A stretch of 64,000 nucleotides of DNA. Source: Eledone cirrhosa. Lineage: Eukaryota. Positions 21,264 through 53,190 of this stretch are shown here, piece by piece. Every line of letters begins with the position of its first letter. The stretch's first letter is position 1. The stretch lies in the NCBI GenBank assembly GCA_964016885.1, contig OZ024740.1, positions 368,094,001 to 368,158,000 of the forward strand. The letters run 5' to 3'. Below the pieces are notes generated by a model, which saw nothing but the letters and a program-made list of their open reading frames with translations, was not told the DNA's origin and did not search any database. A program made the position numbers and the translations under genes.

Positions 21264-21495
21264 ATATTTATTAAAATAACAGATTAAAGTTTAAGCAAAG
21301 AATCGCTGCTTTCACCCTTAACGGGATCTTCTGAGACTCAGATGATTCCGTTAAGGGTGAAAGCAGCGATTCTTTGCTTAAACTTTAATCTGTTATTTTA
21401 ATAAATATTTGCTCTACGGTTCTTATATATTTGATATATATTTATCCTAATCGAGCCCTCTTTGGATTTTAGTCTTCAAATTTATTATTATTACT
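21264..21495 (+). mobile_element. Family X non-autonomous PLE-like repeat with a snap-back palindrome (21264-21408) centred on its hammerhead-like motif
   Basis: Inverted arms around AGACT (21334-21338). Shares the family 3' end GAGCCCTCTTTGGATTTTAGTCTTCAAATTTATTA followed by (TA)n. Confidence 0.75.
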
Positions 21496-21569
21496 ATATA
21501 TATATATATATATATATATATATATATATATATATATATATATATATATATACATATATATATATATAT

Positions 21570-21662
21570 GAAGGAAGTGTGGTAAGGTACCAAATGGGCC
21601 CTAACGCACCAGAGTACTCAATATTTAGTGTAGTAGAGTACGAAAGTTTTTAACATTTTCCT
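21570..21662 (-). repeat. Family Y interspersed repeat fragment
   Basis: Similar to copies at 34760-34860, 41843-42018, 45912-45978, 46090-46276 and 53247-53360. Confidence 0.7.
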
Positions 21663-21748
21663 ATATATATATATATATATATATATATATATATATAATA
21701 ATGAAATGACAGGAGGCTGGATTTGTGTAAATCCTTGAAAGGTTTATT

Positions 21749-21806
21749 ATACTATGATCATTTCAATGACCGGGTTCCGTATGAATCCGGTGATATCATC
21801 AGGTAT
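21749..21806 (-). ncRNA. Minimal type-I hammerhead ribozyme motif (mirror copy)
   Basis: Reverse complement of 22000-22057. Confidence 0.65.
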
Positions 21807-21999
21807 TCGAAATATAATACGTGAATGTAATAGGTAAAATCCATGGGGCTGAAAATCGAGACCCGAGGGCGACCGCTATTCTGTTCCTTCAACCTCAGCC
21901 GGTCGCCCTGAGATTGAAGGAACAGAATAGCGGTCGCCCTCGGGTCTCGATTTTCAGCCCCATGGATTTTACCTATTACATTCACGTATTATATTTCGA

Positions 22000-22057
22000 A
22001 TACCTGATGATATCACCGGATTCATACGGAACCCGGTCATTGAAATGATCATAGTAT
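22000..22057 (+). ncRNA. Minimal type-I hammerhead ribozyme motif
   Basis: ATAC-CTGATGA-[T..ACCGG..CCGGT..T]-GAAA-TGATCA-TA^GTAT, with palindromic helix III TGATCA. Confidence 0.65.
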
Positions 22058-50500: not shown

Positions 50501-51472
50501 GCCATTAATGTGTCTTTGGTTAGGGAATGGAAAGGTTTCCTAAATATTTCAATTATAATCTGACAATACATGCGCAGAGACGAAGAACGCTTAGCAGAGG
50601 CCATGTTTAAAGATGCGAAGATCGAGGTTATTTTGAAAGATGAGTATCAACGGGCTATGCATCTATAGGAATAAACCTAATAATGATGAAATTTTAAGAT
50701 TATAGGTTTCCCACAGTGATGGCATGAATATTAAATAGAAGAGGTGTGGGTATGCAGTCACGGAGATAATGATTAACGTAGGATATTTAGATCTTCAAAA
50801 TTGATATAGATTTACATTATAGTTCTGATTATATATTATTCTCATTTACCAATCGTATTATCTGTATTTTCAATGCTAACATTATATTTAATACACATTA
50901 TCAAATTCACACGAGATGATTTAATAGTTTGAAATATTTATATTTAACCCATTATAAAGTGTGTCAGTTTAACACGATGATATATTCATTGCTTTTGTAC
51001 AATTTCGTTAAATATTGCTTAGATATCTATCGAAACGTTTCCTATGAACTTAGCTTATCTCTACCACACGATATATATCAGCGAATACTTCAATAAACAT
51101 TAACCTGACTAAATATCAGAAACTAATTCAAATGCTAGACATGAAACGAAATCAAGTTTGGCTGATATATTTTTTCATTGTGAAACTTTATTGCGAAAGT
51201 CAGTTTGCATAAATAATACTAAATACAAATGAACATAATTATTCGTAGTTCGGCAAAGCATAAAATAATATACAATATGTTTAAGATTATCCATGTCAAC
51301 TTTCATTGAGTAGATGTATGATGAAAGGAACTACAGTCATGTCAATCGCAACACTTTAGTAAGATGATCTGGTTTCCATTATGAATTGTTCGAGGGTGAT
51401 TTGAGAACTGTGAATGCTATTCCCTTTGGATCAAACTATAACTATATTTATTGTTATAAAACAAGAACGGTA

Positions 51473-51654
51473 ATAATTGTTTCTACTGTTGGCACAAGGC
51501 CAGCAATTACCCGGTACAATGGGTACTTTATTCTATAGATCCCGTAAGGATGAAATGGCATAGTTAACCTCGACGGGGTTTGATCTCAGGCCATAAAGGG
51601 ACATAACTATGTTAGAAAGCATCGCGTCCAACACTCTACCGATACTGCGAATTC
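51473..51654 (-). mobile_element. tRNA-derived SINE with a 15-bp TSD
   Basis: TSD AAGAACGGTAATAAT at 51463-51477 and 51662-51676. Confidence 0.8.
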
Positions 51655-52230
51655 GCGTACTAAGAACGGTAATAATGTAATGTCATGTAGTTAACATTCC
51701 GACACTCACATACAAGTAAACATAGAGAGAGAGAGGGAGAGATAGAGATAGAGAGAGAGAGAGAGAGAGAGAGTGTGATAGAGAGATAGAGACTGGGAGA
51801 GTGAGAGAAAGAGAGAGAATAAGGTACAGAGCTACGTGAGCACACGTACACACATGTACGTGCATATTGATAAGCAGATACTTCACGAATTCGAAAGAAT
51901 GATTGCATGCCAAATCTCCTCGTAGTCTGTTTTTGTTGCATTTCATGCAAAACAATGTTTTATTATATATCACGTTGTTCTACTTGCAATTTTGTCACAT
52001 GAGTACCAGAAGATGTCTGCTTATATATATATATATATATATATATATATATATATATATATATATATATAATATTAAGGATACTATTTATGATTATGTA
52101 TATACTAAAACATTTTATAGTTATGTATATTTTAAACCCTAAACAGTGAAGGTCAGTAATTTATTACTACCTTATTACCAGTAAGATAAATAGCTCAATG
52201 TAATAACATCAGTTGTTCTACAGAACAGTT

Positions 52231-52945
52231 ATATAGAATTCACAAGAATCAAAGCTATGTTCAAAGCATTTATTCACTTACAATTGTTTTATCCAAACTT
52301 AGGCTTGGAGTCTTCGGAGCATTTTTCAATGTTTCTACACATAATTGACCTCCTTTCCAACGCAAGAGACATACAGATACATATATATATATATATATTG
52401 ATGTACAGTGGAGTGAGATATATGATACTATATTATATCTGTATATCAATTCAAATTCAAAATCAAATTTAAAATTAAAATTAAAATTTTAAAAAATTAA
52501 AACAAAATTAAAATACATTCGGCAGTTAACACAGATAATGCAAGAGGATAGTTTGTTAGTCAGATGTAGTAGTTAGTGTATGCGTTAGTTACACGTGGGG
52601 CATGCAAGTGTGTCTCATTTATATACGATTATTGTGTGGCAGGGTGTTACATGTAATACAAGCACTTTAAGCGGATAAGTAAGAGTATTATGGTGGTTGT
52701 AGTGGTAAGGTAGTATGGTAAGTTTGTGTGCAGAAAAATAAAAATAAAAAGGAGAAGCAAAAGAAAGTTATGTACATCAGTATATATATATATGTATCTG
52801 TATGTCTCTTGCGTTGGAAAGGAGGTCAAATATGTGTACAAACATTGAAAAATGCTCCGAAGACACCAAGCGTAAGTTTGGATGAAACAATTATAACTGA
52901 ATAAATGCTTCGAACATAGCTTTGATTCTTGTGAATTCTATATAT
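52231..52945. mobile_element. Inverted pseudo-LTR-like pair (52231-52407 and 52771-52945), each with a CCGAAGA-core hammerhead-like motif
   Basis: Two-copy consensus GCT-CCGAAGA-C(T/A)CCAAGC..GTTTGGAT-GAAA-CAATT(G)-TA^A(G)T at 52854-52898(+) and 52276-52320(-). Confidence 0.7.
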
Positions 52946-52960
52946 ATATACGATATATAT

Positions 52961-53190
52961 CCACGAACCAAAGTATCGTCTTCCTGTCTTCCTCCGGTTG
53001 CAACGTTTTTTTAAATATCCACTTCTGCGTTTACAGATTGACTTTGTTAGTTTCAGAAGCAGCGATTCTTTGCTTAAACTTTATTCTGTTATTTTAATAA
53101 ATATTTGCTCTACGGTTCTTATATATTTGATATATATTTATCCTCATCGAGCCATCTTTGGATTTTATTCTTCAAATCTATTATTATTAC
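52961..53190 (+). mobile_element. Family X copy with stem II deleted
   Basis: AGTTTCAGAAG joined directly to CAGCGATTCTTTGCTTAAACT. Confidence 0.75.

Follow-up and report, generated by a model that had tools for sequence, protein, structure and literature searches.

Hammerhead Motifs at the Locus

The window, that is the whole 64-kb stretch of DNA analysed here, contains nine copies of a hammerhead motif which belong to one repeat family, called family X in the following, and one further fragment of this family. The elements of the most complete fold and the family X copies are the following:

47417..47490, plus strand: type I hammerhead fold, most complete copy in the window
47417-24/47483-90, plus strand: distal helix I of this fold
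47425-31, plus strand: bulge in helix I
47432-36/47478-82, plus strand: proximal helix I
47437-43, plus strand: core, with A4 at 47438 and also G8U
47444/47456, plus strand: U-U opposition
47445-55, plus strand: helix II
47457-59, plus strand: G12-A14
47460-76, plus strand: helix III, with the cut predicted after 47477
47256..47510, plus strand: 5'-truncated terminal repeat (pLTR) copy with (TA)n end, head-to-head with the copy at 46368-47255; it contains the hammerhead and the intron acceptor (AG at 47333-47334)
46368..47255, minus strand: inverted 5'-truncated copy that includes a portion of the intron besides the hammerhead, whose C3 is at 46526, and the 89-nt tail
21260..21338, minus strand: short copy (C3 at 21333) that forms one arm of an inversion junction located immediately 5' of the core
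21338..21497, plus strand: short copy with tail, C3 at 21339, opposite arm of the junction with 21260..21338
28626..28703, minus strand: short copy, C3 at 28699, at an inversion junction
28707..28786, plus strand: inverted partner of 28626..28703, with the 5' half of the core only, followed by a tail fragment (28726-28786)
36615..36937, plus strand: more diverged copy (80-84%) in which the 3' strands of helices III and I have been deleted; C3 at 36802
40567..40883, minus strand: more diverged copy (87%), C3 at 40721, G8U
52960..53193, plus strand: copy with helix II deleted, C3 at 53054
58135..58205, minus strand: family X fragment, tail only

Direct reading of the sequence located all eight cores which the initial annotation had named at their places, and its description of the helices at 47417-47490 and 46473-46546 proved correct. 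Its plus strand core positions are right, and its minus strand values are the low ends of the seven-nucleotide core strings, C3 itself lying at 21333, 28699, 40721, and 46526. The list was extended by a ninth copy, which has lost helix II and whose C3 is at 53054. All nine copies proved damaged when read by eye: G8U breaks the C3-G8 pair in the copies at 47437 and 40721, the first helix I pair is mismatched in the copy at 46526, deletions affect the copies at 36802 and 53054, and four copies (21333/21339 and 28699/28707) are interrupted by inversion junctions. The window is thus a graveyard sample and the question of the state of the motif has to be asked of the whole family. Two features had been missed in the first description, a U10.1-U11.1 mismatch which closes helix II, and the Penelope-like identity of the family.

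A Penelope-Like Element of the Hydra Clade

Judged from its sequence, family X is the pLTR of an autonomous Penelope-like element of the Hydra clade. Its unit of 3.28 kb contains a 713-codon reverse transcriptase (RT)/GIY-YIG frame and a 763-nt intron. In the 3.0-Gb genome each full unit has two copies of the motif at a distance of about 3.28 kb, on the sense strand of the long frame, one about 190 nt ahead of the open frame and the other about 950 nt past its stop. The frame had exactly 713 codons in 13 of 20 fetched top-scoring loci, with 712 and 714 codons in two others. The encoded protein shows, by eye, RT motifs A and C as well as a GIY-YIG-type endonuclease motif at its C-terminus, together with RWR (one change from RWK), DKT, CxCX5C, CxxC, and CxH. 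As the motifs RWK, DKT, a CxCX5C linker, CxxC, and CxH define the Hydra clade according to section 11 of PMC8557442, the element was assigned to this clade, an assignment by motifs rather than by an RT tree with reference clades. The protein is visibly homologous to published Hydra proteins and has 1,249 homologues at E<=0.001, the best database relatives being 57% and 47% identical. Pfam did not recognise the whole protein and gave a weak RVT_1 match for a fragment of it. Comparison to solved structures yielded no match.

Family X copies have the usual layout of a pLTR plus tail; they are 5'-truncated, frequently arranged in head-to-head pairs, and carry (TA)n ends. Two insertion end points were found about 29 and about 117 nt beyond the predicted cut. 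A search with Rfam over the 3.28-kb unit found no second ribozyme. Nor did it return a hammerhead hit, at E<=10 for positions 47380-47515 and at E<=1 for the unit, so that the family is indeed missed by Rfam, as the initial annotation had supposed of standard searches if the motif is a natural variant.

Adenine at Position 4 as the Family State

A core pattern of 27 nt gave 21,913 exact matches with A4 versus 870 with another base at this position in the genome (22,783 in total), and its reversed control gave 0 matches, so that the abundance is far above chance. Because U4 is replaced in 21,913 of 22,783 matches, the motif was filed as a variant and not as a canonical type I hammerhead. The statement that the core never reads CTGA thus holds within the window and does not extend to the genome, where the 870 matches with another base are junction products and decay. 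Of these, about 81 of the 100 non-A matches listed have T at position 4, and 24 of 25 inspected U4 loci turned out to be head-to-head inversion junctions at or beside position 4. U4 is read at such junctions because a 7-nt quasi-palindrome around position 4 provides one strand with U4 without a partner in helix I. When the proximal helix I strand was additionally required, 130 matches remained for the three bases other than A, and in the 100 of them which were listed a hand count gave about 37 with T, 39 with G, and 24 with C, as decay predicts. A4 was invariant in 85 aligned copies, many of which came from loci chosen by similarity to an A4 query.

As 24 of the 25 U4 copies inspected are inversion junctions, the family is without a canonical subfamily, and a canonical (U4) master was rejected, the remaining U4 copies being scattered decay. 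A4 is thus the family state. Together with the occurrence of A4 in an older subfamily (see below), this supports the proposal that the family amplified with U4A. A true hotspot at the junction was considered and dropped: microhomology merges several breakpoints there into one product, and nearby single positions give 81-136 junction matches.

Two further candidates for A4 hammerheads were rejected. The motif at window position 35523 (+) is a lone U4A mutant copy in an otherwise canonical family, with U4 in 99 of 100 relatives listed (of 5,963). Another A4-like repeat with 50 matches is a YADD-coding stretch of a LINE.

Intron and Transposition via RNA

The intron of 763 nt has GT-AG ends on the strand of the element, and contigs of run X2 skip these nucleotides (L035:466-1228). 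In the genome the donor exon end is followed by a non-G base in 192 matches versus 1,462 unspliced ones. Thirty of the 192 were inspected and comprised 21 precise joins to the acceptor, four joins a few bases earlier, and five donor mutants. About 104 nt separate the acceptor used from position 4 downstream of it, and all 21 precise intron-less joins run on into the A4 motif, which is kept whole. The existence of precise intron-less copies implies that the element moved through RNA. About one tenth of the genomic copies across the donor are such precise intron-less retrocopies. Penelope-like elements are known to retain introns.

A real intron, an A4-G5 dinucleotide preceded by a pyrimidine-rich stretch, and the Drosophila virilis Penelope intron, which ends at helix I (PMC4209133, in part), would fit the idea that A4 makes a 3' splice site within the core, so that splicing drops half of the ribozyme or rebuilds a canonical one. 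None of the 30 inspected donor-side loci joins to any AG within the fold, however, and 21 of the 30 use the upstream acceptor precisely. A pattern joining donor to core gave 88 matches, only one with the donor letters, which is a truncation junction, and none of 15 inspected matches was spliced. Neither of the consensus-type donor exon ends would restore C3-U4. The rebuilding of the core by splicing was rejected as joins to an AG inside the fold were absent at the inspected DNA loci, and a splice switch in general is very improbable.

Conservation of Core and Stems between Subfamilies

A sister subfamily, which is older and about 75-80% identical, also has A4. A pattern which excluded the young loop 2 and left position 4 free gave 106 matches, this subfamily among them, with A4 in 90 of the 100 listed. 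Thirty loci were also chosen by a downstream pattern alone; of the 19 cores readable in them about 16 have A, 2 have G, and 1 has T. At one of these loci the motif is joined to a fragment of the frame with 62-67% protein and 73% DNA identity, decay included. In a contig of run X5, which carries another organism code, an A4 core with the loop of the older subfamily occurs at a loose end (L093:6158), and this single contig weakly suggests that A4 may predate a species split.

Column majorities of seven young copies were compared to those of 13 older copies (13 of the 30 loci, the others being truncated or rearranged). The two subfamilies differed at none of nine core positions and at two of 47 positions of stems plus core, both caused by one T insertion in the helix I 3' strand. 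Loops, bulge, and N7 differed at nine of 21 positions, the free position N7 among them, and the upstream flank at 32 of 74, where an 11-nt indel is counted column by column. Comparison of stems plus core versus loops gave p = 2e-4 in Fisher's test, in a contrast which represents one pair of related lineages. C3-G8, G5, A6, A9, G12, A13, A14, A15.1-U16.1, and H17 are the majority state in both subfamilies, and in the three core helices 91-98% of cells are paired, in type I order. The low divergence of core and stems is consistent with selection on fold and core.

Covariation of the helices, suggested as a check in the initial annotation, was not significant: the score was reached by 31 of 500 shuffles. 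Formally this null result counts against the fold, but the test has little power in 18 sequences because the stems are nearly invariant. Structure prediction with ViennaRNA covered nine natural copies by themselves, of which four carry U4. It gave proximal helix I a probability of 0.00-0.09 in all of them and placed the hammerhead fold of the young copy about 7 kcal/mol over the minimum. A14 is able to pair with U17, and the fold z-scores were unremarkable.

This weak folding support and the lack of significant covariation, together with the finding that all columns vary about equally within the young subfamily, would suit a dead vestige, in which U4A inactivated the master and the motif is still present because descent is recent or because an overlapping function, for instance in the promoter, in splicing, or in the 5' UTR, constrains it. 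The differences between the subfamilies nevertheless spare the core and both strands of all helices and fall in loops and flank, divergence of the linked frame fragment has reached 62-67% amino acid identity, decay included, and the splice acceptor in use is located about 104 nt upstream. A mere vestige is therefore improbable.

Known Hammerheads for Comparison

Hammerheads in the pLTR of Penelope-like elements and fixed core variants have already been described (PMC4209133 and PMC6765202, both in part). Hydra-clade hammerheads (Craig et al. 2021, PMC8557442, in part) resemble the one of family X in being type I, in their location in the pLTR on the sense strand, in (TA)n insertion, in U-U at 10.1/11.1, in U17, and in the protein motifs. 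In the Hydra-clade rows of File S2 of that paper U4 occurs in 26 of 26, and U-U at 10.1/11.1 and U17 are common. As these latter features are normal for the clade, A4 is the only one of these core features in which family X departs. Outside the core, helix III of family X is longer and not palindromic, with 4-5 bp and a loop of 7-9 nt, and its helix I has 13 bp and a bulge.

Cervera and De la Pena (2014, PMC4209133, in part) described minimal hammerheads in Penelope-like elements of metazoans. These share with family X the spacing of the pLTR copies of about 3 kb, the high copy number, inverted pairs, and an upstream intron, and have a fixed core variant of their own, U3-A8. Unlike family X they have no helix III or a palindromic one and are thought to act as dimers. 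Their activity in vitro is low, and the excerpts of the paper mention no variant of position 4. A natural U4C variant in a viroid is less active yet infectious (Perreault et al. 2011, PMC3088659, in part), and U10.1-U11.1 is reported there as natural. Both this variant and family X are changed at position 4, with a pyrimidine transition in the viroid and, in family X, a purine that is fixed across about 22,000 genomic copies. G17 is tolerated in tertiary-stabilised hammerheads (PMC3884650, in part). No natural hammerhead family with U4A was found in the literature searched, to which Lunse et al. 2017, two reviews, and some supplements may add position 4 variants or their rates; the parts seen of a retrozyme preprint, PMC3884650, PMC11014351, and PMC3376415 do not mention U4A.

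For Poseidon of Anolis carolinensis (Frangieh et al. 2024, PMC11167929, in part) two 3' end points define a tail and the hammerhead lies upstream of these points, as in family X. Poseidon belongs to another clade and has a canonical core for which activity has been shown with protein, whereas in family X the tail is about 89 nt long and cutting is predicted. The anole hammerhead cuts only in the presence of the protein of the element. Hammerhead mutants showed unimpaired insertion in vitro, the template was mainly uncut RNA, and RNA-seq gave no ends at the cut site.

A Probable Attenuated Ribozyme and the Alternative of a Silent Fold

That nine single-stranded core bases were retained while the loops drifted favours an attenuated ribozyme. 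We consider it somewhat probable, on the pattern of sequence conservation, that the A4 motif is a slow, probably protein-assisted self-cleaving ribozyme which is still under selection. A4 would have arisen once in a common master and lowered the rate. It may be tolerated as uncut RNA would serve as the template for insertion and only occasional cutting would be required. Since in Poseidon uncut RNA is the main template and the hammerhead is dispensable for insertion in vitro, fixation of a slower core would be possible with the remainder maintained by selection. Folding would be aided by the long helix I and by the protein of the element, and cutting after U17 would be slow and assisted. In a scan of a type III hammerhead every single mutant of the CUGA turn had low activity (PMC9901934, in part), which counts against this interpretation, as does the consideration that a dead fold with a protein-bound tertiary shape could keep the same core bases. 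The poorly predicted proximal helix I, the unremarkable z-scores, and the covariation result weigh in the same direction.

At the predicted cut 136 insertion 5' ends were counted for family X versus 81 at a control offset, and for a canonical family 30 versus 26. The patterns were of unequal length and the counts do not discriminate; neither family shows a clear peak of 5' ends at the cut. Copies of family X continue through the predicted cut site, which would be expected if the motif were dead for cutting and kept as a folded RNA element, for instance for protein binding or RNP assembly; a canonical family of the same genome does so too. Such a silent fold would also agree with the reduced activity caused by changes of U4, with the normal insertion of hammerhead mutants in vitro (PMC11167929, in part), and with the Naiads, which proliferate without canonical hammerheads (PMC8557442, in part). 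Against it stands the retention of all nine single-stranded core bases combined with change in loops and N7, which is the pattern of a catalytic core, as well as the start of reverse transcription at tail sites in the element tested (PMC11167929, in part). A retained fold without catalysis is conceivable but less probable. The more specific version in the initial annotation, an RT-recognition signal, has become weaker, as family X insertions have their end points about 29 and 117 nt beyond the predicted cut and the anole RT starts at tail sites, with hammerhead mutants leaving reverse transcription unaffected.

It is conceivable, though on the unlikely side, that the attenuated ribozyme cleaves at a useful rate and would thus be a natural hammerhead with a purine at position 4, rescued by the extended helix I or by protein. 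If true, position 4 would, together with a C4 family described below, be a rate dial turned down by Penelope-like elements, and searches based on CUGA would miss entire high-copy families of ribozymes. With its many open frames and about 22,000 A4 cores family X offers a natural test of whether Penelope-like elements need hammerhead cleavage. If the A4 motif cuts, the hammerhead consensus needs widening; if it does not, a retroelement retains a catalytically silent hammerhead under selection.

Other Hammerhead Families in the Genome and in the Window

The genome contains many canonical hammerhead families. A separate Penelope-like family is fixed for C4, as found in 99 of 100 listed of 3,822 exact matches. 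With the A4 family, position 4 is thus relaxed in at least two large families. The C4 family (G000 loci L154-L168) has relatives at 52857 (+) and 39600 (+) of the window, and in its hammerhead the pair at the base of helix II is non-canonical and helix III is palindromic. A sister Hydra-type family (L033:4385-6550 and L089:7684-9901), with 51-54% amino acid identity, has a U3-A8 core with U4 and long helices II and III. Tandem hammerhead repeats were observed at L096:7290-8193 and L091:151-1084, those of the U3-A8 type at a spacing of about 320 nt and canonical ones at 311 nt.

In the window, canonical hammerheads at 22742 (+) and 26605 (+) lie on either side of a decayed Penelope-like frame (about 23000-25500) with 40-45% identity to family X. 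Minimal hammerheads with canonical core and U-U at 10.1/11.1 occur at 33319 (-), 33787 (-), and 34344 (+) in retrozyme-like units of about 465 nt. At 45987 (+) a motif with canonical core and short helix II adjoins an inverted tail fragment, and positions 60287-60331 (+) match Hammerhead_1 with 29.1 bits, under the gathering score. The region from 1490 to 20570 contains decayed LINE-type frames for RT and endonuclease (e.g., 7043-9477 on the minus and 17234-19170 on the plus strand).
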